NCBI GenBank assembly: GCA_965649115.1
Contig: CBFGJN010000009.1
Coordinates: 1 to 44,313 of the forward strand
DNA from: a candidate division WOR-3 bacterium
GTDB lineage: Bacteria > Hydrothermota > Hydrothermia > LBFQ01 > DSFT01
DNA: 44,313 bases
Direction: 5' to 3'
In this document: piece by piece, positions 120 to 44,313 of the stretch
Layout of the letters: each line of letters starts with the position of its first letter
How positions within the stretch are numbered: the first letter of the stretch is position 1
Program-made: the position numbers and the translations under genes
The notes under the pieces: generated by a model
Database searches by the model: none
The model's input: the letters and a program-made list of their open reading frames with translations, nothing else
Told to the model about the DNA's origin: nothing

Positions 120-128
120 AATGAATTC

Positions 129-295: not shown

Positions 296-341
296 AATGA
301 ATTCGGCTTTGGGGGGCAATAATTAAAGCAAAGTTTTATTA

Positions 342-4522: not shown

Positions 4523-4860
4523 TGCACTTGTCTAGTAATTAAGCCTTCCGCTTTAAAAAAACCCTAACTTTTGCCTTCGGAGGGGCATAGCTCCCCTTAT
4601 CCCCCATTAAAGCAATAATTTTCTTGAAATTTTAATTGATAATCAAGGACTTAACATTATTTAATGGCTTATTGCTGTATCTAATAATTCTAAAAGTATC
4701 TATTTTTCTTTATTTTCCCACCCACCCTAAATATAAGCGGATGGCTTTAAAATACCCATATTTATGCCTTGGGGGGCTTCGCCCCCCTTAATTCCTCCTG
4801 TAAAATTAATAATTCTCTTAAAATTTTTATAAGTCCTTACACTAATTACTAGACAAAGCA
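4523..4860 (+). mobile_element. Two tandem MITE-like repeat copies (about 4523-4667 and 4673-4860), further fragment to about 4930
   Basis: TIR-like TGCACTTGTCTAGTAATT and TGCTGTATCTAATAATT; end AATTACTAGACAAAGCA; CCCACCCACCCT 4717-4728; hairpin GGGGGGC-TTC-GCCCCCC 4771-4787. Confidence 0.8.
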
Positions 4861-4967
4861 ATTTTCAGCAGTGGGAGGCTTTGCCCCCATAAATTTAATA
4901 GTTTCTTTGAGATTTTTATAGGTCAATGGCATAGGATATAAATTTAAGCCTTAAAATTTTTGCTTTA

Positions 4968-15520: not shown

Positions 15521-15521
15521 G

Positions 15522-15536
15522 GGGGGCAATGCCCCC
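15522..15536. terminator. GC hairpin between convergent genes
   Basis: GGGGGC-AAT-GCCCCC fills the 17-bp gap between two stop codons. Confidence 0.6.
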
Positions 15537-15537
15537 A

Positions 15538-16050
15538 TTATTTTAGAAGGTCAAATGCAAATGGGTCTTTGTCTACTTCAATTTCGTTAGCTCCTATGAA
15601 AATATGATGTGTTTTATGCTTTTCTAATTCTAAATTAAATACAAGAAACTTTCCATTCTCAATTTTGAATTTTATTCCATCAGTTTTTTCACCAGTATTG
15701 AAATGGAACTTTATTTCCTTATCTCCTACCATTTCAAAATAATCACCCTTTTTCTCTGAAAAATTTCCATTTTCAAGATGTACTCCACTGACATCACTTA
15801 TTTTTGCTCCCTTACCTATAATCCTTATTCTACCTGTAAATAGCTCTCCTTTATCACTTTCAGAAGTTGTTATTAGATATACTGTTCTTCCTTCATGCCA
15901 TATGAAGAAACCAACTGATCTACCAGGAACGATATTTTTCGGTCTGCCTTCTGCTTTTGACCAAGGGATAGCATTTTTTATGGCGGATTTTATTTTATCC
16001 GCTTTCTCTTCAATTTGCTGTTGTAATGTCAAAATTGTCAAGAGCATCAT
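15538..16050 (-). CDS. Hypothetical exported protein (start reassigned to ATG 16050)
   Basis: ORF track 15538..16065; in-frame ATGATG gives MMLLTILTLQQQ; beta-rich body. Confidence 0.6.
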   Translation of the reverse strand: MMLLTILTLQQQIEEKADKIKSAIKNAIPWSKAEGRPKNIVPGRSVGFFIWHEGRTVYLITTSESDKGELFTGRIRIIGKGAKISDVSGVHLENGNFSEKKGDYFEMVGDKEIKFHFNTGEKTDGIKFKIENGKFLVFNLELEKHKTHHIFIGANEIEVDKDPFAFDLLK

Positions 16051-16112
16051 ATTATTAATTGACAATTTTTTCTTAAAAAAGGTTGCATATCCATTCCCTT
16101 AAAATTTTCATT

Positions 16113-19583: not shown

Positions 19584-20507
19584 TTAAAAGTTATTTTGAA
19601 TATATTCAACAGCAAGCGTTCCAGCATAAGCACCATCACTAACAGCAGTTGTTATTTGCCTTAAATGCTTACTTCTTAAATCACCTGCAACAAATAATCC
19701 TTCAACCTTAGTTTTTGTTGTTTCATCAGCAATTACAAAACCACTTTCATCATATTCAATTCCTTTAAAGTTTTTAAGTAGTTGATTTTGTGGAACCATT
19801 CCTATATAAATAAAAATTCCATCTAACTCTAATCTAAATAATTCATTTGTTTTAACATTTTCAATTAAAATTTCTCTAACTTTTCTATCGCCCCTTATTT
19901 CTTTAACAACACTATTTAAAATAAATTCAACATTTTTCTTTTCTTTAAGTTTTTGAACATAAAGAGGTTGTGCTCTAAATTGATCCCTTCTATGTATTAA
20001 ATATAATTTTGAAACGATATTGGAAAGATATAAACCTTCTGTAAATGCTGAATCTCCACCTCCTATGACAGCAACAACTTTATTTTTAAAAAATGCCCCA
20101 TCGCAAACTGCGCAATAAGAAACACCTCTTCCGTAAAATTCATTCTCTCCTGGAACATTTAGCTTCCTTGGACTTGCTCCCGTTGCCAATATAACAGCTT
20201 TTGATTTTAGAATTCTTTCATCTGAAAGTTTTATATAAAAAAATTTTCCTTCTTTCCATAAATCAATAGCTTCTGAATATTCAATTGGAACTTCAAATTT
20301 CATAACATGTTCAAGCATCTTTTGACTTAACTCAGAACCTTTTATTTCAATGAAACCTGTATAATTATCTACAATATCTGAAATAGCTACTTGACCACCT
20401 GGTGCGCCTTTCTCAATAATCAGAACTTTAAACATTGCTCTTGCGACATAGATACCTGCGGTAAATCCCGCCGGTCCTCCCCCAATTATAATTACATCAT
20501 ATTCCAT
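19584..20507 (-). CDS. trxB: Thioredoxin-disulfide reductase
   Basis: GGGPAG, GVSYCAVCDG, GGGDSA, HRRD, FVAGD. Confidence 0.96.
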   Translation of the reverse strand: MEYDVIIIGGGPAGFTAGIYVARAMFKVLIIEKGAPGGQVAISDIVDNYTGFIEIKGSELSQKMLEHVMKFEVPIEYSEAIDLWKEGKFFYIKLSDERILKSKAVILATGASPRKLNVPGENEFYGRGVSYCAVCDGAFFKNKVVAVIGGGDSAFTEGLYLSNIVSKLYLIHRRDQFRAQPLYVQKLKEKKNVEFILNSVVKEIRGDRKVREILIENVKTNELFRLELDGIFIYIGMVPQNQLLKNFKGIEYDESGFVIADETTKTKVEGLFVAGDLRSKHLRQITTAVSDGAYAGTLAVEYIQNNF

Positions 20508-20545
20508 AAGTATGATAATTTTAAAGTTTCTTGTTATATTCTTCG

Positions 20546-20652
20546 TGCTGTGTCCAAAAATTCTGGAATTATTTATTTTTCAAAAGCCTTCGGCTTTAAA
20601 ATACCCATTTTTTGCTTTGGGGGGCAGAGCCCCCCTATTACTAGACAAAGCA
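20546..20652 (+). mobile_element. MITE-like repeat, 107-bp deletion derivative with 8/9 flanking direct repeat
   Basis: TGCTGTGTCCAAAAATT ... ATTACTAGACAAAGCA; flanks TATTCTTCG (20537-20545) and TATTCTTTG (20653-20661). Confidence 0.82.
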
Positions 20653-20661
20653 TATTCTTTG

Positions 20662-20725
20662 GACTGTGTCCAATAATTCTAAAAATATATATCTTTCTAT
20701 ATTTTTAGAATTACTGGACATAGAA
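20662..20725. repeat. Foldback mini-element made of two element left ends
   Basis: CTGTGTCCAATAATTCTAAAAATATA ... TATATTTTTAGAATTACTGGACATAG, near-perfect inverted repeat. Confidence 0.8.
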
Positions 20726-26441: not shown

Positions 26442-26514
26442 AGCGGGCGACGGGATTTGAACCCGCGACCCCCAGCTTGGGAAGCTGGCGCTCTACCAAC
26501 TGAGCTACGCCCGC
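26442..26514 (-). tRNA. tRNA-Gly(CCC)
   Basis: Minus strand GCGGGCG..TAGCTCAGTTGGTAGAGC..CCAGC-TTCCCAA-GCTGG..GGTTCAAATCC..CGCCCGCT; CCA not encoded. Confidence 0.97.
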
Positions 26515-27230
26515 TCAAGACCATATATAAAGAATTTGGCTCCTCCAACAGTTTCAGTTTCTACAAGAACAACATAAATTTTATTTTCTTTCCTTTGAAT
26601 GTACAAGGTCAAACCTTTTAACTTGAGATGAAAACTATCAAAACCATTTAAATCTAATCCTAAAATTGACCATAGATTTGATATTGTTTCAATAAGTTTA
26701 TTAATGTTAGGTTTATAATCAGTTTCCTTTGAAATCATAAATTTTTCAACTTTTCCATCTGATAAAACAATAGCCATTCTAACACCTTTTATATCTGAAA
26801 TTTTCGTTTTTGGTTCTTCTTCTGCTAAACTAAAAGCAAGCTCCCTTAATTCTTTTTCAAGACTTTCATCTACGGGTTTAATTTTTTCAACCTCTTCAAC
26901 TTCTTCTCCGCCAGACAACAAATTCATTAACATTTCAAGCTCTTTTTCCAAATCATCACCAACACCCTCACTCTTAAATTCTTCAATTGAAAATTCAGGA
27001 ATTTCAATAACTTCCTCCTTAAACTCAGAGATTTTGGACATAACATTAGGAAATGTTGATAGCAGTTTATTCACAATATCAATATCAAAAGGTGTATTTT
27101 CATTTATGGATTTTACATCAATGCCAGAGATTTCTGACCAATAGGTTATAGCTTTTTGAATAGCAGATTCATCCAATCCTTTACTTTTCATTTCCTCAAT
27201 AGCATTATCTATTATAAGTTTAACTTCCAT
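26505..27230 (-). CDS. Hypothetical protein with acidic linker and C-terminal Roadblock/LC7-like domain
   Basis: ISDIKGVRMAIVLSDGK..helix..three beta strands..helix pattern; Glu-rich middle. Confidence 0.6.
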   Translation of the reverse strand: MEVKLIIDNAIEEMKSKGLDESAIQKAITYWSEISGIDVKSINENTPFDIDIVNKLLSTFPNVMSKISEFKEEVIEIPEFSIEEFKSEGVGDDLEKELEMLMNLLSGGEEVEEVEKIKPVDESLEKELRELAFSLAEEEPKTKISDIKGVRMAIVLSDGKVEKFMISKETDYKPNINKLIETISNLWSILGLDLNGFDSFHLKLKGLTLYIQRKENKIYVVLVETETVGGAKFFIYGLERA

Positions 27231-27259: not shown

Positions 27260-27365
27260 TGCTTTGTGCATTGTCTAGCAATTCGGGAATTATATTTATT
27301 TCTTTATTTTTCCCACCCACACTACAAAATAAGCCTTCCCGCTTAAATTCCCCCGAAAAATCTAT
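27260..27365 (+). repeat. Partial MITE-like repeat (left part)
   Basis: TGCATTGTCTAGCAATTC, CCCACCCACACT 27312-27323, AATAAGCCTTCC, TTAAATTCCCCC. Confidence 0.75.
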
Positions 27366-30435: not shown

Positions 30436-30458
30436 GGGGCTCTTGCCCCTTATTTTTT
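30436..30458 (+). terminator. Rho-independent terminator-like hairpin
   Basis: GGGGC-TCTT-GCCCC followed by TTATTTTTT directly after the stop codon. Confidence 0.6.
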
Positions 30459-30479
30459 CATAAAGGAGAAAGTAAGATT

Positions 30480-32030
30480 ATGTTAAGGTTACTAATAACA
30501 ATAACCCTTTTTATAAGCATAGGATATGCTCAAACAAGCAAAATTGTTTGGATGAATTATAGTGCAACAGGATGTATAACCTGTCATAGGATAGCATCCG
30601 TGAAAATGAATGATACACTATATATCTTTGGAACTTTTCATTATAATAATAAACTTAATCCATTTCTTATTGCAGTTGATAGTGCTTTAAATATCAAATG
30701 GTATAAGGCTTTTAGTCATAATTTGGATAATTTGGCAATTGATAAAATTGTAAAAATTAATGATAGCTTAATTGCTATAAGTGGAGGACATTCTCCTTTG
30801 GATGGTAAATGCCCAAACTATAATTGTTCATTTGTAGGTTTATTCAATGTCAAAAATCAAAATTTCATATGGTCTAAATATAGAGTTGGTGGCAGTGGAG
30901 TTGGATTATCAGTTGTAGGATTGGACTTTGATGGTAAAAACTTAATTTTTTCTGCTCAAAGTAATACTAATAATAATGGTTCTTGGATTTTTAAAACTGA
31001 TTTAAGTGGAAATATACTATGGCAGAAATTAATTTGGACAGGTTGGGAATTTAATACGATGGATATAGCCTTTGATGGTTCTAATTATGTATCACTATTT
31101 TATACCTATTCCTCTGGAAATCCTACTATTATAAAATTTGATACATTAGGCAATTTTCTATGGGCAAAAAGTTATGAATTTGGATATAGCGAAAGTGCTT
31201 ATAGAATTATTGCTGATAATAATAGTTATGTTGTCGTAGTTCTTGGTTGTAATAATCCCTGTGGAGGAGATCTTAATATAATTGTTTTTAAAACTGATAC
31301 AAGTGGAAATATCTTATGGTCAAAGTCATATTCTTCAAATGTTGCTGGATGGGCTAGTGAGGATAGAGCTTATAACATAGCATTTGATTATGATGGGAAT
31401 TATCTTGTTAGTGGTTTTATAAGGGCAAGTTCAAGTTCATCTTATCCAATTGTCTTAAAAATAAATAGAAATAATGGAAGTTTAATATGGTCAAGAGTTT
31501 GGAATACACCACCACCGAATACATCTTCAAATGAAGCAAAAGGCATAATATCCATTGGACAAGGAAAATTCTATTTATTGACATTTGTTGGAAATGGAAC
31601 TGATGCAAGTGGAGGATTTGCAATTATTAGAGAAGATACTTCTTTGAGCTCAGCTTGTACTTCTTCCTCATCTACCTTTAATGAAAGTTCAATAACACCT
31701 AGTGTATCAAATTTAACTCCCTCTTTACAAGATGCTAATTATTCTTTAAATGATTTAGCATTTTCTTCTTATATACCTAACATCAACCAACAATCTGGTT
31801 GTGAGATAACTTCCAACTACGAATTTTATAAATCTTGTTCATTTGAAATTAAAGGCAATAGGGGTTATATTGATATAAAACTTAAAGAAAGGAATAGTGT
31901 TATTATTTATGACATAGTTGGAAATGTTGTTTATAGTGAATTTTTTGAAGGTGAAAGGAAAGTTAAGGTAAAGAATGGGATTTATATTATTAAAGTAGGA
32001 AGAGAAAAAGTGAAAATTATTGTAAAATAG
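30480..32030 (+). CDS. Secreted beta-propeller repeat protein with T9SS-like C-terminal domain
   Basis: Signal peptide ..SIGYA/Q; repeats K(T/F)DxxGN(I/F)LWxK; S/T linker; IYDIVGNVV..NGIYIIKV..KIIVK; AAGGAG SD. Confidence 0.8.
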   Translation: MLRLLITITLFISIGYAQTSKIVWMNYSATGCITCHRIASVKMNDTLYIFGTFHYNNKLNPFLIAVDSALNIKWYKAFSHNLDNLAIDKIVKINDSLIAISGGHSPLDGKCPNYNCSFVGLFNVKNQNFIWSKYRVGGSGVGLSVVGLDFDGKNLIFSAQSNTNNNGSWIFKTDLSGNILWQKLIWTGWEFNTMDIAFDGSNYVSLFYTYSSGNPTIIKFDTLGNFLWAKSYEFGYSESAYRIIADNNSYVVVVLGCNNPCGGDLNIIVFKTDTSGNILWSKSYSSNVAGWASEDRAYNIAFDYDGNYLVSGFIRASSSSSYPIVLKINRNNGSLIWSRVWNTPPPNTSSNEAKGIISIGQGKFYLLTFVGNGTDASGGFAIIREDTSLSSACTSSSSTFNESSITPSVSNLTPSLQDANYSLNDLAFSSYIPNINQQSGCEITSNYEFYKSCSFEIKGNRGYIDIKLKERNSVIIYDIVGNVVYSEFFEGERKVKVKNGIYIIKVGREKVKIIVK

Positions 32031-32034
32031 TGAT

Positions 32035-32153
32035 TTTATTGGGGGCATAGCCCCCATAACCGAAATATGGGCATTTTAAAGCCGAAGGCTTAAATTTAGG
32101 GTGGATGATAAAATAAAGAAAAGTAAATGATTTCAGAATTACTAGACAAAACA
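32035..32153 (-). mobile_element. Partial MITE-like repeat copy
   Basis: GGGGGC-ATA-GCCCCC, AAGCC-GAA-GGCTT, end AATTACTAGACAAAACA. Confidence 0.78.
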
Positions 32154-32162
32154 TTTTGCCTT

Positions 32163-32367
32163 TGCTTTGTCCAATAAATAATGTTAAGTGCTTGATAGTC
32201 AATAACTTATTAAAAATTCATTAAAATTCTTGAAATAATGGGGGAATTTAAGGGGGGCGAAGCCCCCCAAAGCATAAGAATGGGTATTTTAAAGCCGAAG
32301 GCTTATATTCAGGGTGGGTGGGAGAAGTATAGAAATAATTATATTTTCAGAATTACTAGACAAAGCA
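32163..32367 (-). mobile_element. Most complete MITE-like element (205 bp) with perfect 9-bp flanking direct repeat
   Basis: TIRs TGCTTTGTCCAATAAAT / AATTACTAGACAAAGCA; TTTTGCCTT at 32154-32162 and 32368-32376; all internal modules present. Confidence 0.88.
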
Positions 32368-32384
32368 TTTTGCCTTAAACCTTA

Positions 32385-32395
32385 TCCTTTAAAAT
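32385..32395 (+). promoter_or_regulatory. Representative -10-like motif (TCCTTTAAAAT) 7 nt before the ATG
   Basis: The same motif recurs 6-11 nt upstream of 14 start codons in the window. Confidence 0.65.
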
Positions 32396-32402
32396 TTGAA
32401 AT

Positions 32403-33476
32403 ATGTCAATCGGTTTCTTAAAAGGTGATATAATTCCATTAATGCCAAACACAATAAATGAAATTAAAAAATTAAATTTAGAAATTTTCTTTGAAAAGAA
32501 TATAGCTCAAAATATATACATAGATGACGAAGAATTTGAAAAATTAGGAGCAAAAGCTTTAAATAAAGAAGAAATTTTAAATAGTTGTGATATTCTTGTT
32601 TATTATAAATTTAACTATAACGATATTGAATATATTAGGAGAGGTTCAATTCTAATTGGCTTATTTGACCCATTTGTAAATAAAGAAAAATTAAAATTAC
32701 TTTTGGAGAAACAATTAACAATTTTTTCATTAGAACTAATACCAAGAATTTCAAGAGCACAAAGTATGGATGTTTTAAGTTCATTAGCAACAATAGCAGG
32801 TTATAAAGCTGTAATTATATCAGCATATTATTTCAACAGGATTTTTCCATTACTTATGACATCTGCTGGAAATTTGCTTCCCGCGAAAGTTTTCATAATT
32901 GGTGCTGGCGTAGCAGGTTTGTCTGCTATTGCTACTGCTAAAAGACTTGGAGCATATGTATCCGCTTATGACGTCAGGATAAGTGTTAAAGAACAGGTTG
33001 AAAGTCTTGGAGCAAAATTTGTAGATTTGGGATTATTTAGTGAAGAAGAAAAGTACGGATATGCAAAAAAGATGGATGAAGAATTTTACAAAAGACAAAG
33101 AGAAGCATTAAAAGAGTATTTAAAAGACATTGATATTGTTATAACAACAGCATCTGTAATAGGAGCAAAAGCACCAATTCTAATTACAAAAGATATGGTT
33201 GAAGTAATGAAAAAAGGTAGTATAATAGTAGATTTGGCTGTTGAAAAAGGTGGAAATTGTGAATTAACGAAATATAACGAAATATATGAATATAATGGTA
33301 TTAAAATTATTGGAATTCCAAATCTACCAGCACTTGTTCCTTATCATTCAAGTTTTATGTTCTCAAATAATATAAAGAATTTTCTAAAAATCATTATTAA
33401 AGATGGCTCTTTAAATTTGAACTTCAACGATGAAATTATAAGAGAAACACTTATAAGCAATGAAAAAATTACTTAG
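32403..33476 (+). CDS. pntA: NAD(P) transhydrogenase subunit alpha, soluble domain I
   Basis: IPRISRAQSMDVLSS, AGYKAV, GAGVAGL, EQVESLGA, DLAVEKGGNC. Confidence 0.92.
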   Translation: MSIGFLKGDIIPLMPNTINEIKKLNLEIFFEKNIAQNIYIDDEEFEKLGAKALNKEEILNSCDILVYYKFNYNDIEYIRRGSILIGLFDPFVNKEKLKLLLEKQLTIFSLELIPRISRAQSMDVLSSLATIAGYKAVIISAYYFNRIFPLLMTSAGNLLPAKVFIIGAGVAGLSAIATAKRLGAYVSAYDVRISVKEQVESLGAKFVDLGLFSEEEKYGYAKKMDEEFYKRQREALKEYLKDIDIVITTASVIGAKAPILITKDMVEVMKKGSIIVDLAVEKGGNCELTKYNEIYEYNGIKIIGIPNLPALVPYHSSFMFSNNIKNFLKIIIKDGSLNLNFNDEIIRETLISNEKIT

Positions 33477-33879
33477 TTTTCTTATAATTGCCTTTATTTT
33501 CTCCTGTAATAAAAATCCAAACCAACCCGAGCAAAATAAACAATTTTATCTAATAGATATATATCATGGAACTATTGGTTTAGGTCCAAGAAGTTATTGG
33601 TCGGTTAAGTTTTATACTGAGGAAGGTGATTCAATATACTTTGAAGCAGTTGTTAATAATGGTAATGATATTAGTTATGCATTTTGGTGCGATAGTATCA
33701 ATTTTGAAAGATGGAAAAATAATGAGAATGCCCAATTAAGAAATTATCAAGAAGCAATTTTAAATTATTCAATTAATTCAATTGTTTCAAAAGGAACTTA
33801 TTATATTGTTTTAGGAAATAGTGCTTATTTTAATTCTAAAATATATTGGGCAAGAGGTTATATAAAGGGTTTAAGATGA
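33460..33879 (+). CDS. Small lipoprotein, beta-sandwich
   Basis: Lipobox IFSC; GDSIYF..GTYYIVLGN. Confidence 0.7.
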   Translation: MKKLLSFLIIAFIFSCNKNPNQPEQNKQFYLIDIYHGTIGLGPRSYWSVKFYTEEGDSIYFEAVVNNGNDISYAFWCDSINFERWKNNENAQLRNYQEAILNYSINSIVSKGTYYIVLGNSAYFNSKIYWARGYIKGLR

Positions 33880-35180
33880 TAACATTATTTTTATCTTTAA
33901 TAAATTTTCAGGATTGGGATGGAAAAAGCATCATAATCAAAACAAAAAATGATTATATTCCAAATGTTTTAAGCAATTTTAGAATTGAAAAATTAAGAAT
34001 AAAAAATGCTTATAAAGTTTATATTGGAAACAATAAGCAAATTCTTGAATATCTTCAAAGTGATAAAAATATCATTTATGCTGAACCAACCATTAAATTT
34101 AAGTTATCTTATGAGCCTAATGACCCATATTATAGTGAGCTTTGGGGGTTATATGTAATGTACTTAAATTACGCTTGGAATATAAGTAGAGGTTCTTCAA
34201 ATGTCAAAGTTTGCGTTATAGATACGGGAATTGATATTTATCATGAAGATTTAAATGAAAATTTCTTAGCGGGATATGATGAAGTTGATAACGATAATGA
34301 CATTTCTCCACCTTCTTCATCAGAAGAACACGGAACACATGTTTCTGGAACAATTTTAGCAATAATGGATAATAATAAAGGCATTGTTGGAATTTCTCCT
34401 AATAGTAAATTACTTGGTTGTAGAGCTTTAACGAATAATGGAGGAACAAGTGATGATATTGCCAATTGTATAATGTGGTGTATAAATAATGGAGCAAGAG
34501 TTATAAATATGAGTCTTGGTTCTTCTTCACCAAGCTTAATTATTAAAGAAGCAATAGATAGTGCTTATAGTAAAAATGTTATAGTTGTCGCAGCTGCTGG
34601 AAATGATGGACATTATGGTATAGATTATCCTGCTGCTTATGATAATGTAATAGCTGTTGGAGCATTAGATAAGAATGGACAAAGAGCAAGTTTTAGTAAT
34701 TATGGACCTGAACTTGACTTTGTAGCTCCTGGTGTTGATATTCTATCAACAGTTCCATATAATAATCAATATGCCAAACTTCAAGGAACATCTATGGCAA
34801 CACCTCATATTACTGGAACAATTGCTTTAATCCTTTCAATAAATCCAAACTTAAATTTTAATGATATTTATAATATATTAAAATCTTCTGCTATTCAAAT
34901 TGGACAGCTACCAAGAAATGATTATTATGGTTGGGGACTTGTTAATGTTTATAGAGCATTATTAAATACACCACAACCTACCTTTTCAAATTTTGATATT
35001 AAATCTCCTGAAATTAAAATTTTTGGTAAATTTGTTAAAATTAAATCAGAAAAGAAATTTGAAATTTATTCAATAAATGGCAATAAAATTATTTCTACTA
35101 ATAATTTTGAAGGCTTTTTGAATAGTGGTATTTATTTTTTGAAATATGAAGGAAATTTAAAAAAGTTTTTGATTCCTTAA
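33876..35180 (+). CDS. S8 subtilisin-family serine protease with short T9SS-like C-terminal domain (start likely ATG 33876)
   Basis: VIDTG, HGTHVSG, AAAGN, GTSMATPH; C-terminal IYSING..SGIYFLK; ATGA overlap with the upstream gene. Confidence 0.92.
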   Translation: MITLFLSLINFQDWDGKSIIIKTKNDYIPNVLSNFRIEKLRIKNAYKVYIGNNKQILEYLQSDKNIIYAEPTIKFKLSYEPNDPYYSELWGLYVMYLNYAWNISRGSSNVKVCVIDTGIDIYHEDLNENFLAGYDEVDNDNDISPPSSSEEHGTHVSGTILAIMDNNKGIVGISPNSKLLGCRALTNNGGTSDDIANCIMWCINNGARVINMSLGSSSPSLIIKEAIDSAYSKNVIVVAAAGNDGHYGIDYPAAYDNVIAVGALDKNGQRASFSNYGPELDFVAPGVDILSTVPYNNQYAKLQGTSMATPHITGTIALILSINPNLNFNDIYNILKSSAIQIGQLPRNDYYGWGLVNVYRALLNTPQPTFSNFDIKSPEIKIFGKFVKIKSEKKFEIYSINGNKIISTNNFEGFLNSGIYFLKYEGNLKKFLIP

Positions 35181-35191
35181 TATGATTATTC

Positions 35192-35947
35192 ATGAAGAAA
35201 CTATTCAATTTAAGCATTTATGAATTTGATTTTATTTTAAGGGAAGTTTTGAATAAAACATATTCGGATTATTTAATAAATGGCATTAGTAATCAGGAAT
35301 TTGAAAAGATAAAACCTTATATTGAAATTGCTAAATATAAGCCTGTTGAATATATTTTCAATAAAGCTTTTTTTAGAAATTTAGAACTATATGTAGATGA
35401 AAATGTACTTATTCCAAGAAATGAAACTGAACAACTTGTAGATATTGCCATTAAAATAATCAAAGAAAAAAATTATTTTAAAATTTTTGAAATTGGAATA
35501 GGAAGTGGAGCGATTAGTATTAGTTTGGCAAAAGAAATTGATAAAATCAAAATTTTTGCTAATGATATTTCATTTAATACCTTAAAAGTTGCTCAAAAAA
35601 ATATAAAAAAATATCAAATTGAAAGTAAAATTTTTTTATTTTGTGGAGATACAATAAAATCAATAAAATCAAAATTTCACTTAATTATTTGGAACATTCC
35701 TTATATCCTTGAAGATGAATATATTTATTTAGATAAGAAAGTAAAAGCAGAACCAAAATTAGCATTGTTATACAAAGAAGAAGTTTTTAGTCAATTTCTA
35801 AATAACTTTAAAAATTTCTTATTTGAAAACGGAAGCTGCCTTTTAGAAATATCACCAAAATTATCAGAAAAATTAAAAAATTATGGATTTGAAATTTTAA
35901 ATGATTTTTATGGTACTCAAAGATTTGCTTTATATACGAATTCTTGA
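35192..35947 (+). CDS. prmC: Release factor glutamine methyltransferase (HemK/PrmC)
   Basis: KPVEYI, VLIPRNETE, EIGIGSGAI, NIPY (NPPY variant), EPKLAL. Confidence 0.85.
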   Translation: MKKLFNLSIYEFDFILREVLNKTYSDYLINGISNQEFEKIKPYIEIAKYKPVEYIFNKAFFRNLELYVDENVLIPRNETEQLVDIAIKIIKEKNYFKIFEIGIGSGAISISLAKEIDKIKIFANDISFNTLKVAQKNIKKYQIESKIFLFCGDTIKSIKSKFHLIIWNIPYILEDEYIYLDKKVKAEPKLALLYKEEVFSQFLNNFKNFLFENGSCLLEISPKLSEKLKNYGFEILNDFYGTQRFALYTNS

Positions 35948-36039
35948 TTTAAAGAGTTTTAATAGTTGAGATTTTTAAAGCCAAAAATAAGGCTTAAATC
36001 TCCAATTTTCGCTTTGGGGCAAAGCCCCTAAATTAGGCT

Positions 36040-36191
36040 TGCTTTGTTCAATAATTATTGTTAAGTTGTTGATAATCAATTATTTATTGGAGGATTTTAA
36101 GGGGGGAAAGCTTTTAAGGCGAAGCCTTATTTTCAGGGTGGGTGTGAAAAATATAATAAAATAAGGACTTCCAGAATTTTGGGGCACAACA
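36040..36191 (-). mobile_element. MITE-like repeat copy, diverged
   Basis: TGCTTTGTTCAATAATT, IHF-consensus 36062-36074, TAAGGC-GAA-GCCTTA, AGGGTGGGTGTG, end ..GGGCACAACA. Confidence 0.78.
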
Positions 36192-36200
36192 TTTAGACTT

Positions 36201-36282
36201 AACTTTGACTTATAAAAATTTTATTAGAATTATTTATTTAAGGGGGGCTTTGCCCCCCATAGCAAAATTACTAGACACAGCA
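36201..36282. mobile_element. Short MITE derivative with 9-bp flanking direct repeat
   Basis: TTTAGACTT at 36192-36200 and 36283-36291; GGGGGGC-TTT-GCCCCCC; end AATTACTAGACACAGCA. Confidence 0.72.
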
Positions 36283-36289
36283 TTTAGAC

Positions 36290-37576
36290 TTAAAAGTTAG
36301 GTTTTACAATATAAACCTTTCCTAAATATGGAGCATTTAAAGAATCAATAACATTTTCAGCTTTTATATGACTTACAATATAATTACAATTTACATTCAA
36401 ATTTAAAAGATTAAACTGATTGTCTCTTGAATAAAATTTATAAAATCCAATAGGTTTTTTAAGATAAAAGTAAAGTTCAGATGCTAATTGATAATTCGTA
36501 GCACATAAATTCTCGTTTTTTACAATTTTTTTAACTTCTTTAGAAAATAATTCCCAATTTCTAAATTGACTTGTAGGGTCATTTTGAAAATTAAAAATTG
36601 GAAATAAAATGTGAATTTTTAAGATAAAAATTAAAATTGAATTTATAATTGAAACAACTATGAAAATTCTTCTTAAAAAATTTTTTTCAATTAAATAATG
36701 ATATGAAAGATAAATTAAAGGGAAGATAATTGGACATGTCCAATTCGCCTCTATTTTATTTCTAAAACTCATAATCAAGAAAAATAACAATATGCCTATT
36801 AAATTAAATTTTAAGACATTTTCAAAAGCATCTCTTGGCTTATAAAGAAATGATGAAATAATTGTTATAAATCCCACAAGAGGACCATAAACAAGAAACT
36901 GACCTAAAACATAATCAAAAACATTGTTAATTTCAAAGCCTAAACCTTCCCTTTTAAATAATTGATATTTTATCGTTATAAAATCATTTTCAAATTGCCA
37001 AATTATATGAGGCAGATAAAACATTAAACTTAAAGCAAAAATAAAATAAAATGATTTTCTCTTAAAAATAATTTCTCTAATTGCAAAAATTGTAAAAAAA
37101 ATTATTAAAATTGAATGATACTTTGAATAAAGCATTAGTGCTATTGAAATTGAAACAAAAAAAGCATCTTTAAAACTATCTTTCATTAAATAATTTCTTA
37201 AAAAATAAAAAAATAAACTTTCTGAAAAAACTAACAATCCATCTGGAACTGCAATAAATCCACCTGCATTTAACAATAAATTTGATAAAATTAATAATGA
37301 AAATAAAATTTCATCTTTTTGCTTTAACATTTTATAAAGAATTATTATGGAAGTTGCGCTTAAAATAATTGTTAAAAGTCTAACACCAAGTTCATTTTTA
37401 AAAATTAAATAACCAATTTTAATTGAAAGTGCAATTAATGGAGGATGATCAAAATACCCAAAACTTAAATAATTTGACCAAACCCAATAGTATGCTTCAT
37501 CAGGTGCCAAGTCTAAAAAATAACTTAAAATGACATTTGAAATAACCCAAAATAAAATTAAACTACTGAATAACAC
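36290..37576 (-). CDS. ArnT/PMT-family (GT-C fold) glycosyltransferase
   Basis: PDEAYYWVWS..GYFDHPPL, GVRL, PDG, SKY; multi-TM. Confidence 0.88.
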   Translation of the reverse strand: MLFSSLILFWVISNVILSYFLDLAPDEAYYWVWSNYLSFGYFDHPPLIALSIKIGYLIFKNELGVRLLTIILSATSIIILYKMLKQKDEILFSLLILSNLLLNAGGFIAVPDGLLVFSESLFFYFLRNYLMKDSFKDAFFVSISIALMLYSKYHSILIIFFTIFAIREIIFKRKSFYFIFALSLMFYLPHIIWQFENDFITIKYQLFKREGLGFEINNVFDYVLGQFLVYGPLVGFITIISSFLYKPRDAFENVLKFNLIGILLFFLIMSFRNKIEANWTCPIIFPLIYLSYHYLIEKNFLRRIFIVVSIINSILIFILKIHILFPIFNFQNDPTSQFRNWELFSKEVKKIVKNENLCATNYQLASELYFYLKKPIGFYKFYSRDNQFNLLNLNVNCNYIVSHIKAENVIDSLNAPYLGKVYIVKPNF

Positions 37577-38510
37577 GTGAAAGATAATCTATTATAGGCT
37601 TTATATTAGCAATAGGTGAAAAATTCCTATTATAATTTTTTTCAACAATCATACTTACAAAAGCAAATTTTGGATTATCAACGGGAAAAAATCCAACAAA
37701 CCATTTTATATAACCATTATGAAGTCTATCATATAATGAACCTGTTTTTCCACCAACATCATAACCTTTTAAAAATTTCTTAGCAGTTCCATTATTTACT
37801 GTTTCTCTAAATAATTCTTTTAATTTATAAAATGTTTCTTCTTCAAAAACTCTTCCTTCAATTTTCGGTCTATAATAATAAAAATTACTAATTGAATCAA
37901 TTAGAGTAATTGATTTTACAAGTCCTTTATTTGAAATAGTATTGACTAATTTTAAGGCATCTATTGGTCTTATTTTAGCATTTACAAATCCTGCACCCAT
38001 AAGTGCTAATGAAAAGTCATTTTGTGGAAATAATACATCAAAAAACAATTTTTTACCATAAATATATAAATTATAACTTCCAACAAGAATAGCTAATCTT
38101 CCAAATGCAGGATTATTAGATAAACCAAAAGCTAACTTGAAAGATTGCTTTCTTTCAGTATAATTACTTAACCAAATATATGGCTTTTCACTATAAATTC
38201 TCCCTGAATAATAAATTTCATCATCAGGATTTAAGTTTAGAATTTCAATACTTGCTATTGCTGTTGCTATTTTGAAAATTGATGCAGAAGGAAATTTTTC
38301 ATTTAAACAAACATTATAATTAAATTTATAGCCTTCATAACAACTCATAGCTATTATTCTTCCTTTTTCAATATCTGATACTAAAATTGCTGAAAATTTA
38401 TAAAATTTTGAATTTTTAATTAAAATGCTATCTGCTATTTTTTGAACTTCGTTATCTATCGTTAAATAAACATTTTTCAAATTAAAAATTAAAATAGGAA
38501 ATAAAAGCAC
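37563..38510 (-). CDS. Penicillin-binding protein, transpeptidase domain only
   Basis: LTIDNEVQ, SxxK (SIFK), SxN (SNN), KTG motifs. Confidence 0.85.
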   Translation of the reverse strand: MLLFPILIFNLKNVYLTIDNEVQKIADSILIKNSKFYKFSAILVSDIEKGRIIAMSCYEGYKFNYNVCLNEKFPSASIFKIATAIASIEILNLNPDDEIYYSGRIYSEKPYIWLSNYTERKQSFKLAFGLSNNPAFGRLAILVGSYNLYIYGKKLFFDVLFPQNDFSLALMGAGFVNAKIRPIDALKLVNTISNKGLVKSITLIDSISNFYYYRPKIEGRVFEEETFYKLKELFRETVNNGTAKKFLKGYDVGGKTGSLYDRLHNGYIKWFVGFFPVDNPKFAFVSMIVEKNYNRNFSPIANIKPIIDYLSRVIQ

Positions 38511-39413
38511 TTATAAGCTTTGTAATGACCTTATAAAGCTCTCATTCCTCCTCCAATGTTCTTTAACCTTTACCCATAGTTCAAGATAAACAGGTTTTCC
38601 AATTAACTTTTCAATTTCTTTTCTTGAAATTGTTCCAAGTTCTTTAATTCTTTTTCCATTTTCTCCAATAATTATGCCTTTTTGTGAATCTCTTTCAACA
38701 TAAATAACTGCTCTAATATAAACCTTATCTCTTTTTTGCTCAGGATGTTCTTCTGGATCCACATATTCTTCAACTTTTACAGCAGTCGCATATGGTATTT
38801 CATCTTTATATAATAAATAAATTTTTTCTCTTATAATCTCTGCGACTAAAACTCTTAAAGGTTTATCAGTTATAACATCATCTTCATAATAGGGTTTTTC
38901 TAAATCAGGCAAAAATTTCCTTATACTTTCAATTAAAATATCAATTCCATCCCTATAAATTACACTTATTGGTATCACTTCTTTAAAGTCATGTAATTTT
39001 GAGTAGTTCTCAATTATTGGAAGAAGTTCCCTCTTGTCCTTTACCAAATCAATTTTATTTATAGCAAGAATTATTGGTTTATTTTTATTTTTTAAAATTT
39101 CTATAATTCTTAAATCTTCCTCATCAGGTAATTTTGGTTCTACCAATAAAACAATTACATCAGCATCTTCAATTGCTTTTTCTATTTCAGATAGTGAAAA
39201 TTCGTCAAGTTTATCTTTAACTTTTTTCATAATTCCTGGTGTATCTATAAATATAAATTGTGCATCTTCATAGTTTAAAATTCCAAGTAAATTAAACCTT
39301 GTAGTTTGTGGTTTTGGACTAACAGAAGATATTTTTTCTTGTACTAAAACATTTAAAAGACTTGATTTTCCCACATTAGGCTTTCCCACAATTGCTATAT
39401 ATCCACCCTTCAT
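38511..39413 (-). CDS. era: GTPase Era
   Basis: GKPNVGKS, PQTTR, DTPG, NKID, KH domain SQKGIIIG, LELWVKV. Confidence 0.97.
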   Translation of the reverse strand: MKGGYIAIVGKPNVGKSSLLNVLVQEKISSVSPKPQTTRFNLLGILNYEDAQFIFIDTPGIMKKVKDKLDEFSLSEIEKAIEDADVIVLLVEPKLPDEEDLRIIEILKNKNKPIILAINKIDLVKDKRELLPIIENYSKLHDFKEVIPISVIYRDGIDILIESIRKFLPDLEKPYYEDDVITDKPLRVLVAEIIREKIYLLYKDEIPYATAVKVEEYVDPEEHPEQKRDKVYIRAVIYVERDSQKGIIIGENGKRIKELGTISRKEIEKLIGKPVYLELWVKVKEHWRRNESFIRSLQSL

Positions 39414-39503
39414 AAAACTTTAAAATTTTAAAGGCTGATTTAAAATACTCCAATCACTTTGGGAGGATTATAGGTGTCAATAGCCCCCAAGACAAAAAAT
39501 AAG

Positions 39504-39831
39504 TGCTTTGTCTAGTAATTATTTATAAAAGCTTTTCAGCTATTTATAAGCCAAAGGCCTATTTATAGCGTAAAATAAAATTCTTTGTCTTATCGGGGGT
39601 TCTTAAAGGGGGCGAAAGTCCCCTCCCCAAAACAGGGACAGCACAAGACTTGTGCTTTGTTCAGTAATTATTGTTAAGTCCCTGATCATCAACAACTTAT
39701 AAAAGCTTTGAGGAAATTATAGATTTTTCGGGGGGATTATGGGGGGCTCCGCTAAAAGCCAAAGGCTTATTTTCAGGGTGGGTGGGCAAAATATAAAAAA
39801 ATAAATAGTTTTAGAATTACTAAAAACAGCA
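39504..39831 (-). mobile_element. Two tandem MITE-like copies (39504-39643 degenerate; 39653-39831) separated by 9 bp
   Basis: TGCTTTGTCTAGTAATT at 39504; spacer CAAGACTTG; TGCTTTGTTCAGTAATT at 39653; AGGGTGGGTGGG 39775-39786; end AATTACTAAAAACAGCA. Confidence 0.8.
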
Positions 39832-39859
39832 AAAAATTTCTGCTTTAAAATTTTAAAGC

Positions 39860-40234
39860 TTGGAATTATCTCATTATATTAGAAAAGTTTTAATTGATAA
39901 ACTTAAACCAATTGAAAATTTAGAGCTTGTAATTGTTTCAAATCTATCTGAAAATGTTCTTGTAATTGTTCCAACTGAAAATGATAAAAATATAATTTCA
40001 GGAGAAAAAATTAGCTATTTAGTTTATAGAATTTGGAAGTTCTTAAAAGATAGTAATTGGGGAAATATGGAAGAAATTTACATAAAGGGTGAAAGTAAAG
40101 GTATTATTGCAGTTCCTTTTCATAATAATGAGTTTTTTATTGGAGTTATATTTAAATATCCTATAAATCTTTCAGTTATTATCTCTGCTATTAAGGAAAC
40201 ATTAAAAGAATTAAATATAATTTTGGTTGGATGA
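39860..40234 (+). CDS. Roadblock/LC7 (MglB-like) domain protein
   Basis: 124 aa; [15 protein letters not shown]..helix..[25 protein letters not shown] pattern; TTG start. Confidence 0.6.
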
Positions 40235-40713
40235 AAGTAGGGATTATCATGGGAAGCCTATCAGATTTTGAATATATGAAAGAAGCAATTGAAGTTCTAA
40301 AAGAATTTGGGATTGATTATGAGGTTGAAATTGTTTCAGCTCACAGAACTCCTGATAGAATGTACGAGTACGCTAAAACTGCAAGAGAAAGAGGAATTGA
40401 AGTAATAATAGCAGGTGCAGGTGGTTCTGCTCACCTTCCTGGTATGACAGCAAGTCTAACTGACCTACCTGTAATTGGTGTTCCAATTCCTACAAAATAT
40501 TTAAATGGCTTAGATTCACTATATTCAATTGTCCAAATGCCAAAAGGAATTCCCGTTGCCACTGTTGCAATTGGGAATAGCTATAATGCAGGAATTCTAG
40601 CGGTTAGAATTCTTTCAATAAAATATAAAGAACTTGAAGAAAAATTGAAAAATTATTCACAAAAATTAAAAGAGCAAGTAGAGGAAATGAATAAAAATGT
40701 TCCTAATCTATGA
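40231..40713 (+). CDS. purE: N5-CAIR mutase
   Basis: [46 protein letters not shown]. Confidence 0.97.
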
Positions 40714-42383: not shown

Positions 42384-42992
42384 TTAAATAATGCCCAAAA
42401 TTCTTTTAAGAGCAATTATTTCTTCTTCGGTCATTTTTCTGTATTTTCCTGGTTTTAAATCCACTGGTAGAACAATAGGTTCAGTTTCAATTCGTTTCAA
42501 TTTTTTAATTGTAGGAATAATTTTCTTTAATTGATTAACTTTCATTTTGATAGTTGTTATAACTGCTTTATTTCTTGAAATTTGAGAAATTTTTATATTT
42601 TGAACATTAAAGTTTTCGCTAATTGGGACGGAAAGTTCAACTAAATACTTATTTTTTATAAATACTTTATGATAAGCTCTATGAACTTGACCATCATTTG
42701 TTAAAATAATTAATCCTTCATCACTTTTTGGAAGATTTTCAAGTGGAATTAAATACTTTATTTCCTTTGGAAAATAAGTGCTATTTGGGGGTTTGTAATA
42801 AATAATGTAATCTATTGGCATATTCATTTTTATTTCAAATCCTTTGAATGTTATTTTATCTCTTTCACTAACATCAAACCAAGGCTCCTTTATTATTTTA
42901 CCATTAACTTTAATTAATCCATATTTTATTGCTCTAATAGCACTTCTTCTTGAAAAATAGCCTGTTCTTTGTAAAAATTTAAAAAGCATCAT
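42384..42992 (-). CDS. S4 + RsuA/RluB-like pseudouridine synthase homologue, catalytic motif degenerate
   Basis: S4 SRRSA..IKYGLIKVNG; YYKP; EGLIILTNDG; LKPGKYRKMTEEEI; GRLD replaced by ENLP. Confidence 0.8.
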   Translation of the reverse strand: MMLFKFLQRTGYFSRRSAIRAIKYGLIKVNGKIIKEPWFDVSERDKITFKGFEIKMNMPIDYIIYYKPPNSTYFPKEIKYLIPLENLPKSDEGLIILTNDGQVHRAYHKVFIKNKYLVELSVPISENFNVQNIKISQISRNKAVITTIKMKVNQLKKIIPTIKKLKRIETEPIVLPVDLKPGKYRKMTEEEIIALKRILGII

Positions 42993-44227
42993 TTTATTGT
43001 TGCAATTATGTTGCCTTCACAGCAAATCCCATTTTCAGTCCAAGCTTTTGCCAACATTTTAATAAATTTGCTACCACTTCTTAAAATTTTTATCTCTAAA
43101 TATAATCTATCACCAGGAAAAACTGGTTTCTTAAATTTTATATCCTCAATACCAACGAAAAGAGGAATTTTTCCATTTATTGGATTAAATTTAGAATATA
43201 AAATTGCTCCTGTTTGTGCTAATGCTTCAACAATCAAAACACCAGGCATAATTGGATAATTAGGAAAATGCCCATTAAAAAAGCTTTCATTTATTGATAC
43301 ATTCTTATACGCAACAATTCTGTTTTTTTCAAGATGGATAACTCTATCAACAAATAAAAAGGGATGTCTATGAGGTATTAATTTTTTAATTTCCTCAACT
43401 TCCAAAATTGGACCTCCTATGCCTTCTTCAATAAGTTTCTTAACAAATTCAATATGAAGTGTATGACTACCTTTTATACAAAAAATTTCTCCTATAAAAG
43501 GTCTATTAAGAAACATTAAATCTCCAATTAAATCTAATATCTTATGTCTAACAGGTTCATCTAAAAATTTTGGCTTGTTTAAATATCCATTTTTTGAAAT
43601 AATTAATGTATTTTCAAGATTACCACCTCTTCCAAAATTATTCTCTATTAAATTATCTATCTCTTCCTCAAAGGCATATGTTCTTGCTTTTGATATTTCT
43701 TCATAATAGCTAACTTCATTAACCTCAATTCTAAAAAATTGTGATTTTAAAAATTCGTGTTCATAAATAATTGCATAGTTTATAATAAATTTTTCAGATG
43801 GTTTAGCATATATATAACTATCTCCAATTTTAATTTCAATAGGCTCTAATAATTTAAATGGTTCTATTTCTTTATCAAGCTCTAAGAAACCTACTTTTTT
43901 AATTTCTTCAAAAAATGTCTCACTTGAACCATCTAATATAGGAATTTCATTACCTTCCAAAATAATTTTAATATCGTATATTCCAAGAGCATTTAAGGCA
44001 GAAAGAAGATGTTCAACTGTTTGAATTTCAATATTTTCTTTTTTTAAAACTATTCTTCTTTTTGTTTGTGAAATATACTCATAATTTAAGGGAATCTCAA
44101 TACCATCTTTTATAAATAAAATTCCATCATCATAAGGTTCTAAAATTACTTTTGAAAACTTTCCTGTGTGAATACCAATACCTTCAAAGGATAATTTTTG
44201 TTTTATTGTTTTTGCTTTTAAATTCAT
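42989..44227 (-). CDS. lpxC: Bifunctional LpxC / FabZ fusion
   Basis: GIGIHTG, TVEHLLSA, PILDGS, HKILDLIGDL; then PHRHPFLFVD and GHFPNYPIMPGVLIVEALAQ. Confidence 0.95.
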   Translation of the reverse strand: MNLKAKTIKQKLSFEGIGIHTGKFSKVILEPYDDGILFIKDGIEIPLNYEYISQTKRRIVLKKENIEIQTVEHLLSALNALGIYDIKIILEGNEIPILDGSSETFFEEIKKVGFLELDKEIEPFKLLEPIEIKIGDSYIYAKPSEKFIINYAIIYEHEFLKSQFFRIEVNEVSYYEEISKARTYAFEEEIDNLIENNFGRGGNLENTLIISKNGYLNKPKFLDEPVRHKILDLIGDLMFLNRPFIGEIFCIKGSHTLHIEFVKKLIEEGIGGPILEVEEIKKLIPHRHPFLFVDRVIHLEKNRIVAYKNVSINESFFNGHFPNYPIMPGVLIVEALAQTGAILYSKFNPINGKIPLFVGIEDIKFKKPVFPGDRLYLEIKILRSGSKFIKMLAKAWTENGICCEGNIIATIK

Positions 44228-44257: not shown

Positions 44258-44313
44258 TGCCTTGTCCAATAATTCTAAAATTATTTATTTTACTATATTT
44301 TCCCACCCACCCT
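44258..44313 (+). mobile_element. MITE-like repeat left end, truncated by window end
   Basis: TGCCTTGTCCAATAATTCTAAAA ... TTTTCCCACCCACCCT. Confidence 0.78.

Follow-up and report, generated by a model that had tools for sequence, protein, structure and literature searches.

We analyzed a 44,313-nt stretch of DNA (the window) that forms the whole of contig C9 in the genome of a candidate division WOR-3 bacterium (1.848 Mb in 99 contigs, 27.6% G+C, 94.5% complete). The genes of the window are ordinary chromosomal genes, and the gaps between them hold copies of a short repeat, among them a 205-bp copy at 32163-32367 that is flanked by a 9-bp direct repeat. The evidence supports the identification of these repeats as real miniature inverted-repeat transposable elements (MITEs): they have terminal inverted repeats (TIRs), their flanks show an excess of target-site duplications (TSDs), empty sites are found in a relative, and a partner insertion sequence (IS) resides elsewhere in the genome. 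The explanation that we consider best, and hold with good confidence, is that the MITEs are deletion derivatives of this IS903-like IS, with site- and orientation-specific insertion upstream of promoters and stacking. We also lean, with greater reserve, toward a more specific reading in which the transposon and its MITEs home to a single nucleotide position and orientation by way of a -10-like motif, or of the polymerase or sigma factor bound there, as a counterpart of the safe-haven integration of Ty3, Ty1, and TRE elements.

The MITE family and its partner insertion sequence

Used as a single nhmmer query, the 205-bp copy gave 545 matches in the genome, of which 214 span the whole element and 119 are 198 to 210 bp long. 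A profile hidden Markov model (HMM) built from those 119 copies recovered 730 copies or fragments, which add up to 95,250 bp, or 5.15% of the genome, and to about 42% of its non-coding DNA, counted as the DNA outside rough open reading frame (ORF) calls (these cover ~88% of the genome). The 119 aligned copies have 17-nt TIRs, TGCTTTGTCCAATAATT and (as the reverse complement) TGCTTTGTCTAGTAATT, in which most columns are at least 90% conserved. Pairing of TIRs delimited 281 units genome-wide, with lengths of 64 to 215 bp; the TIR pattern used for pairing matched the genome 1,129 times and the reversed genome 103 times, so that about one in ten of the single TIR calls may be due to chance. Shorter classes near 180, 165, 107, and 64 bp occur beside the ~205-bp class. 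The lengths of the full copies differ by single bases (203 bp in 9 copies, 204 in 34, 205 in 37, 206 in 25, and 207 in 7), which suggests that no reading frame is kept in the MITE. Copies are only ~77% alike across the family, and a twin of at least 97% identity exists for 56 of 266 units. The module order that the initial annotation had described as common to the copies in the window matches the family consensus, read on the reverse complement.

The flanks of these copies carry the mark of transposition. Identical 9-bp flanks were found at 86 of 198 full copies and flanks with one mismatch at 13 more, where permuted pairs give 0.6 and 0.5, and when the right flank was shifted by 9 no pair with one mismatch or fewer was left. 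For the TIR-paired units the counts are 106 exact and 20 one-mismatch pairs (126/271; ~1 expected). The excess of 9-bp duplications is thus genome-wide, and the four locus-specific direct repeats from which the initial annotation had argued in the window are all present at the coordinates it gave.

We then identified the partner. TIR matches that fall outside the MITE hits, ~100 to 127 nt from contig ends, belong to a longer element and represent its two ends. One of these, end A, is present at 16 contig ends without a single difference (100% identity), and the other, end B, is present at 10, as two variants; the family TIR is found in both. In end B the TIR is followed by 67 nt, an ATG, and an open frame whose 56-aa N terminus is 92% identical to that of P0002, a protein of 300 aa from a metagenome. 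The final 14 residues of this protein coincide with the end of the ORF in end A, 82 nt before the right TIR, so that the two ends and the length of P0002 together predict an IS of ~1.05 kb (67 nt + 903 nt + 82 nt). A box similar to CTTTAAAAT lies 6 nt before the ATG of the transposase gene. P0002 scores 245 bits with NF033579, a model of IS5-family transposases (cut-off, 140), and also matches PF13737 (2.3e-20) and PF01609 (4.8e-25), which is the IS5-type arrangement of DDE_Tnp_1 with an N-terminal DDE_Tnp_1_5 region. In tblastn its residues 4-290 of 300 align with features named "IS5-like element IS903B family transposase" (~26.5% identity; E value, ~1e-13). Judged by sequence, the transposase is probably a distant member of the IS903 group of the IS5 family. 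Other IS5 groups make target duplications of 2 to 4 or 8 bp. The initial annotation had likened the 9-bp duplication to that of IS10 and IS1; it points instead to the IS903 group. MITE and IS agree over the first ~26 nt at their left ends and have similar right TIRs, so that the orientation of the MITE corresponds to that of the IS. Mobilization in trans, which the initial annotation had proposed on finding no transposase in the window, fits these results: the window indeed holds none, and the family TIR and the ends of an IS5-family transposase ORF are found together elsewhere in the genome, at the 26 contig ends with IS ends.

The family also bears on the assembly. Contigs end inside a MITE copy at 74 of 198 contig ends and inside the partner IS at 26 more, which puts MITE or IS at 100/198 ends and accounts for the fragmentation of these metagenome-assembled genomes (MAGs). 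Both ends of the window lie inside a MITE copy as well, as the initial annotation had expected of an assembly broken at repeats. Contig ends overlap by ~127 nt (for instance C71:1-127, C50:14008-14223, and C93:1-236), and no contig is shorter than 2.8 kb.

The MITEs contain conserved structure, and this raises a different explanation, namely that they are structured repeats kept for a function in the host (as terminators, insulators, small-RNA genes, or protein-binding sites), with mobility incidental. A hairpin at model positions 129-145 (AAGCC-GAA-GGCTT; window 32291-32305, for example) covaries: positions 134 and 140 form a CG pair in 164 copies and a GC pair in 70, and they are paired in 238 of 249 copies, compared with 141 expected under column independence. 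A 7-bp G/C hairpin at model 91-107 (window 32251-32267, for example) is nearly invariant, and each MITE has an internal promoter-like box, CTTTAAAATACC, on its reverse strand that is almost never an insertion target. Retention of the covarying and GC-rich hairpins, of a TTGATTATCAA palindrome, and of the internal motif at ~77% identity speaks for function. We nevertheless regard a host-serving origin as quite improbable, since transposition is evident from the TSDs, the empty sites, the near-identical twins, and the TIRs in common with an IS that has a transposase, since a single change passed on within a subfamily may explain the covariation, and since derivatives of 64 to 107 bp that lack the hairpins occupy the same sites. 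In Rfam no family reached its gathering score for the element, the sole window matches being two tRNAs, and at an E value of 1 or less two matches stayed far below gathering (20.9 versus 34 bits and 20.4 versus 58.6 bits); a described RNA, which the initial annotation had kept in view as a possible match, is thus not what was found. A blastn search of the element against plasmid and phage collections gave no match. The small hairpin with its T-tract is unsupported as an intrinsic terminator for the copy at 32163-32367, a simple terminator scan of 31900-32500 being empty.

Two further structures were seen within the element. The conserved palindrome of the TTGATTATCAA type lies at model 24-46 (window 32186-32208, for example), and a GGGTGGGTGGG run lies beside further G-runs at model 152-162 (window 32313-32323, for example); they could be a protein-binding site and a G-rich structure, respectively. 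A solitary hairpin, GGGGGGCAATGCCCCC, at 15515-15546 between the convergent genes 13532-15520 and 15538-16065 resembles the G/C hairpin of the MITE, with no other MITE sequence around it.

Position, stacking, and age order of insertions

Next, we looked into where the elements sit relative to genes. The motif CTTTAAAAT occurs 910 times in the genome (149 expected), and an ORF start lies 15 to 20 nt downstream of 367 of these occurrences. It also lies 15 to 28 nt upstream of 29 of 45 tRNA genes, several of the remaining tRNA genes being inside tRNA clusters. The box has the form CTTTAAAATTT preceded by any base other than T, has no conserved -35 element at MITE-free cases, and is kept at MITE-free orthologous promoters in congeneric genomes. 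In the window it is found at 32387-32405 and, on the reverse strand, at 1725, 4502, 20526, 27248, 39433, and 44245. From its position, CTTTAAAATTT is probably a host promoter of the -10 type, and these observations suggest extended -10-type promoters and mostly leaderless mRNAs in the WOR-3/Hydrothermia lineage.

The elements keep an exact distance from this motif on one side. Measured from the right terminus, CTTTAAA lies at 19 nt in 67 units and at 18 nt in 25, with a minor class at 11 nt (18 units) and 12 nt (6 units) (n = 264), and offsets of 20 to 60 account for 3 units in all. From the left terminus, used as a control, no offset exceeds 4 units (n = 266). When we relaxed the motif and considered the 193 units without a following copy, 90 were in phase at 18-19 nt and 36 at 10-12 nt (126/193); on the left side of the same units, 168/193 had no motif. 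The targets reconstructed from 43 solo copies with perfect TSDs have CA just left of the 9-mer (C at -2 in 25/43, A at -1 in 23/43) and CTTTA 10 nt to the right. Targets of the minor class read N9 followed by TGCTTTAAAATTTT, that is, a 9-mer and then the same hexamer as at the start of the element. The copy at 32163-32367 belongs to the main class, its right terminus lying 19 nt from CTTTAAAATTT at 32387; the gene that follows, with its ATG at 32403, is of the alanine dehydrogenase/PNT family (Pfam PF01262 and PF05222; AlaDH). This copy has twins of 99% and 98% identity on contigs C66 and C22.

The same rule holds for the youngest insertions. The motif lies at offset 19 (in one case 18) for 11 of the 16 identical IS right ends, degenerate variants of it lie at 19 for 2, and the remaining 3 abut a MITE TIR after 9 nt, so that all 16 are in a target context; no IS left end has the motif (0/10). 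Among the youngest MITEs (perfect TSD and a twin of at least 97% identity), 27/29 are in one of the three contexts when flanks read by eye are included, and the two others are nested in the TIR of another copy. Seen from the genes, 164/391 gene-start motifs have an element terminus, 131 at 18-20 nt and 33 at 10-12 nt. The MITE-internal CTTTAAAAT boxes, which precede ACC or GCC and not TTT, have a terminus in phase in 1/126 cases, and we therefore rejected CTTTAAAAT alone as a sufficient target. The idea that the right TIR serves as a -35 box was rejected for the main class, in which TAGACA lies 27 nt from the -10-like hexamer, too far; in the minor class the spacing would be 19 nt, and there the TIR may still serve in this way.

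Copies also stand next to each other at a fixed distance. Between the end of one TIR and the start of the next, the spacing is exactly 9 nt 132 times and 8 nt 12 times, and no other value from 0 to 60 occurs more than 5 times; 107/109 close junctions are head-to-tail. All four TSD cases of the initial annotation are head-to-tail junctions with a neighboring copy. Local tandem duplication or unequal crossing-over would be another origin for such arrays, and a duplicated unit of TSD and element would give identical 9-mers throughout, as seen in 12 of 41 oriented arrays (pattern AAA or AAAA, see below). We find this origin hardly credible and rejected it: array neighbors are no more alike than random members of the family (identity, 0.771 versus 0.774; P value = 0.55; 47 pairs, maximum 0.88), which indicates that the arrays are not local duplications. 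The units of one array are, moreover, mostly of different length classes, and the proximal units are systematically younger.

This age order was read from the 41 arrays after orienting each by its elements and giving equal 9-mers the same letter. The patterns were AAA in 10 arrays, ABB in 10, ABC in 9, ABA in 5, AAAA in 2, AAB in 2, and three longer ones (ABCC and ABBCC, one each, among them). The proximal unit bears the TSD in AAA (10), ABB (10), AAAA (2), ABCC (1), and ABBCC (1), and the distal unit alone does so in AAB (2). Proximal units had a best-twin identity of 0.936, compared with 0.850 in distal units (Wilcoxon test, P value = 1.3e-4). These results indicate that the proximal (model-right) unit, which more often has a TSD and has a closer twin, is the younger. 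The five ABA arrays are dimers with an outer TSD of their own, and two of them, at different sites, share the inner spacer AGAGTTAGT, which indicates that dimers move as composites.

The pattern could in principle owe less to the transposase than to its aftermath, if insertion were random or weakly biased, like the YA-N9-TR preference of IS903, and later purifying selection left only the copies just upstream of the core promoter, where they are harmless. The genome is compact (~88% coding by the rough calls), MITE-free promoters show nothing conserved upstream of -5, so that DNA beyond about -19 may be dispensable, and Table 1 of PMC2577343 records for IS903 the YA-N9-TR preference and only a degenerate palindromic target, WTTYA-N9-TRAAW. 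Selection would, however, leave a boundary with a tail, whereas the counts peak at 19 (67 units) and 18 (25 units) and fall to 3 over the whole range 20-60. Copies would be just as harmless in the intergenic DNA to the left or at 3' ends, yet there no phase is seen; the 16 IS copies with identical ends, all in a target context, are too young for much sorting; and selection does not predict 132 exact 9-bp junctions or a single orientation in 107/109. We consider sorting by selection unlikely, while giving it more room than either of the two alternatives above. Mainly because of the 16 IS copies with identical ends and the youngest MITEs, we infer that the phase is set at integration and not by later selection.

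Under the site-specific explanation that we prefer, an IS5-family IS of ~1.05 kb, present in at least 16 near-identical copies, would supply the transposase, and the MITEs would be its non-autonomous deletion derivatives. The DDE transposase would bind the shared 17- to 26-nt TIRs, move the elements in trans, and make a 9-bp staggered cut that yields the 9-bp duplication. An asymmetric site would set the one orientation, with the right end (the transposase-3' end) toward the gene; the target 9-mer would precede the -10-like CTTTAAAATTT by 10 nt in the main class and by 2 nt in the minor class (N9+TGCTTTAAAAT), or, alternatively, abut the terminus of a resident copy (GCA, N9, TGC). The promoter-side 9-mer would keep its distance to the motif and remain a target, and later arrivals would enter between the older copy and the promoter. 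The outcome would be head-to-tail stacks with exact 9-bp spacers and the newest unit nearest the gene, whose dimers could then become mobile as composite units through their outer ends. Persistence of the promoter-side 9-mer as a target would account for the exact spacers, the single orientation, the unrelated neighbors, and the age polarity.

Related genomes and the copies in the window

We evaluated the distribution of the element across 41 genomes, which include the genome of the window (G000) and four congeneric, incomplete MAGs (G001 to G004). Element matches were confined to the genus, with 549 first-look candidates in G000, 321 in G002, 3 in G003, and 3 in G004 (these last marginal; best E value, 8e-5); the element was not found in G001 or in the 36 genomes outside the genus. 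In a scan of 185,579 species for the right-TIR pattern, the matches listed included at least 35 in one public Candidatus Hydrothermia MAG (WOR-3/EM3 lineage), whose LpxC-FabZ protein is 90% identical to that of the window, and at least 44 single ones elsewhere. The phases are reproduced in the second species: in G002, 12/25 free right termini lie 18-20 nt from the motif and 4 lie at 11-13 nt, and in the public MAG, which may be the same genome as G002, 18/36 lie at 18-20 nt, 7 lie at 11-12 nt, and 3 abut a TIR. None of the single chance matches elsewhere (44 among those listed) is in phase.

The partner IS was sought more widely. Searched against G001 to G004, the IS ends match through the TIR only. 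An exact 34-mer of end A had no match in the search of genome contigs and none in that of metagenome contigs, and a close-pattern search of genome contigs with P0002 found no relative. In metagenome contigs P0002 found 8 loci, of which only one, L026, has both TIRs.

Empty orthologous sites, which the initial annotation had named as a check on mobility, are present in G002, which is syntenic with the window over 28.8-42.4 kb. G002 lacks the ~400-bp block at 39434-39840 and reads AAAAATCTC followed by TGCTTTAAAAT where the window reads AAAAATTTC followed by TGCTTTAAAAT after the element; its promoter orthologous to that of gene 26505-27230 has no MITE (the window has a copy at 27267), and it lacks both gene 30480-32030 and the two MITEs upstream of AlaDH. 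At two other sites its copies differ from those of the window. The synteny with G002 breaks exactly at MITE sites (window 20535/20546, 27258/27267, and 30453-32380), with an inversion or relocation adjoining 20546 and a different neighbor gene beyond 27267, and the MITE repeats may mediate such rearrangements. In Logan contigs of four public runs over window 30500-40500, the summed depth was higher over the MITE bins and many short-sided joints resemble repeat cross-matches; no contig bridges an empty site, the one RNA run has none over 32170-32503, and these contigs weigh on neither side.

Several observations weigh against the explanation that we prefer. No TSD is recognizable (three or more mismatches) in 135/266 units, and the "other context" class comprises 62/266 units, a few of which are misses of the regular expression. 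The empty sites of G002 differ from the 9-mers of the window by at least one base, and some are at rearrangements. The assembly lacks the interior of the IS and has only N-terminal fragments of the transposase, at contig ends; the ~127-nt end overlaps and the absence of contigs below 2.8 kb explain why ~1 kb could be lost despite at least 16 copies. The transposase sequence comes from a protein of another metagenome, the transposase was not found with P0002 in the incomplete MAGs G001 to G004, and the L026 copy of the IS is a related one of 922 bp between TIRs that is degraded and has no TSD. The CA signal at the left flank may stem in part from remnants of older copies, the promoter role of CTTTAAAATTT has its basis in position only, and insertions elsewhere in the genome may have been removed by selection.

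The copies in the window, as read from profile-HMM (nhmmer) matches, TIR ends, and flanks, are as follows.

2-119, reverse strand: partial MITE (model 1-128; profile E value, 3e-22) truncated where the contig begins; the 9-mer 120-128 follows directly on its left terminus at 119.
120-304, reverse strand: complete 167-bp MITE (129-295) with the perfect TSD AATGAATTC at 120-128/296-304, head-to-tail with the copy at 2-119.
1737-1788, reverse strand: degenerate remnant, read by eye, with TIR-like GTGTCCAAAAAT, a small hairpin, and AAATACCC, upstream of the promoter motif of gene 342-1709.
4523-4667, reverse strand: degraded MITE (profile match 4535-4667; E value, 3.4e-20) with a truncated left TIR; the right TIR begins at 4523, at 20 nt from the CTTTAAAAT box in the promoter of gene 2924-4486.
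4673-4860, reverse strand: complete 188-bp MITE (profile and TIR pairing) without TSD (7/9 mismatches).
4859-4930, reverse strand: internal MITE fragment (model 36-121; profile E value, 7e-5).
20537-20661, reverse strand: 107-bp internally deleted MITE (20546-20652) with both TIRs and the TSD TATTCTTCG/TATTCTTTG at 20537/20653; the CTTTAAAAT box in the promoter of gene 19584-20507 lies 19 nt from the right terminus (20546).
20662-20725, reverse strand: mini-derivative of 64 bp that consists of a T-rich tract between two TIRs, distal in the same array and with no TSD of its own; the profile matches in this array are 20546-20639 and 20664-20705.
27267-27338, reverse strand: MITE fragment from the right end (profile; model 136-206), with 18 nt between its terminus (27267) and the promoter motif of gene 26505-27230.
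32033-32153, forward strand: older right-half MITE (model 84-205; profile match 32033-32152, E value, 4.8e-25), the distal array unit; its right terminus abuts the 9-mer 32154-32162.
32154-32376, forward strand: complete 205-bp MITE (32163-32367) with the perfect TSD TTTTGCCTT at 32154/32368.
32387-32397, forward strand: CTTTAAAATTT, the promoter-like motif of the host, which precedes the ATG (32403) by 16 nt and is conserved, with no MITE, upstream of the orthologues in G002, G004, and G001.
36040-36191, forward strand: 152-bp MITE between convergent genes, without TSD (profile E value, 1e-19).
36192-36291, forward strand: 82-bp MITE derivative (36201-36282; profile match to part, 36206-36267) with the perfect TSD TTTAGACTT at 36192/36283, an insertion that adjoins the right terminus of the 36040-36191 copy.
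39434-39840, forward strand: MITE-derived block with a partial copy (39504-39637), a complete 179-bp copy (39653-39831), and the 9-mer AAAAATTTC (39832-39840), directly 5' of TGCTTTAAAATTTT (phase 11) in the promoter of gene 39860-40234.
44258-44313, reverse strand: right end of a MITE, truncated where the contig stops; 12 nt separate its terminus (44258) from the promoter motif of gene 42989-44227.

The initial annotation had counted copies at nine loci. Eight of these are recovered by the profile HMM; the ninth, 1737-1788, is undetected at an E value of 1e-3 or less and is at best a remnant.

Two other genes of the window drew attention. A gene at 4968-8363 (forward strand) encodes a type IIG restriction-modification enzyme of 1131 aa that is like MmeI and Eco57I (PF07669, PF12950, PF20465, and PF20473), and its counterpart in G002 is on a different contig. 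Gene 342-1709 (reverse strand) encodes a 455-aa protein of repeated zinc-ribbon modules, from which the DNA repeats D9 and D13 (1115-1443) stem; these repeats are not part of the MITE family.

Comparison with known elements and significance

Insertion next to an element's own or similar ends is known for IS30, IS911, IS21, and IS231A (the last into the ends of Tn4430); there it involves a spacer of a few bp that arises from circle or dimer intermediates, or insertion into the ends themselves. The elements described here resemble these in choosing targets that look like or abut a transposon terminus (132 junctions at 9 nt), but differ in that the spacer is the TSD, the neighbors are unrelated, and the arrays are anchored at promoters. 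REP/BIME, ERIC, and Correia elements are likewise abundant short intergenic hairpin repeats, some of which influence neighboring genes. REP/BIME have neither TIR nor TSD and depend on a Y1 transposase, and Correia elements duplicate TA; to our knowledge, none of these repeats has been described with a fixed 19-nt phase to the -10 region. Among eukaryotes, Ty3 and Ty1 in yeast, TRE5-A and DGLT-A in Dictyostelium, and Tf1 in fission yeast are retroelements guided by contacts with transcription factors. A compact genome, a fixed short distance upstream of transcription starts, the sparing of coding DNA, and a high copy number would all liken the present family to such safe-haven integrators; the element here is a bacterial cut-and-paste IS of the DDE type, and the analogy would be one of mechanism and not of membership.

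The closest likeness is to IS903 and IS903B, which have one DDE transposase of ~300 aa, collinear over residues 4-290 and with PF13737 and PF01609, a 9-bp duplication, and short TIRs. There is also a hint of the YA-N9-TR flank preference tabulated for IS903, which the TG...CA termini of the element itself fit (PMC2577343). The two differ in protein sequence (~26.5% identity), in the TIR sequence, and in the host, which is a member of WOR-3/Hydrothermia and not an enterobacterium; and where IS903 has a degenerate palindromic target, the present family has an asymmetric, orientation-fixing site at a set distance from the promoter and stacks on its own ends. As a non-autonomous, IS-derived TIR element moved by an IS resident in the same genome, the MITE resembles MITEAba12 (PMC6382973), and the terms "9-bp" and "target site duplication" occur in the text of that paper. 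It differs from MITEAba12 and from other bacterial MITEs derived from the IS5 family in its load of ~730 pieces, 5% of the genome and 42% of the non-coding DNA, and in the phase- and orientation-specific insertion and head-to-tail stacking, the abstract of PMC6382973 stating no positional rule for MITEAba12. Our literature search turned up no paper that deals with this MITE family, with any MITE of WOR-3/Hydrothermia, or with bacterial ISs that insert in phase with promoters, and the main text of two WOR-3 genome papers has no mention of transposons or transposition, MITEs, repeats, or insertion sequences.

MITEs derived from the IS5 family are already known; what stands out here is the load, the positional rule, and the age-ordered stacks. 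The family takes up ~5% of the streamlined genome of a hot-spring thermophile and about two fifths of its non-coding DNA, and it marks synteny breakpoints between species. The positional rule, with one orientation and one or two exact phases, is common to the autonomous IS and to a second species. If the phase is set at integration, it would offer a cut-and-paste transposon a route to very high density in a compact genome without hitting genes, as well as a simple system for work on promoter recognition by a DDE transposase and, perhaps, a tool for directing insertions close to promoters. If the elements do home to the -10-like motif, they would occupy 42% (164/391) of the exact-motif promoters and 5% of a 1.85-Mb genome, and the promoter-anchored stacks would be a chronological record of their insertions.

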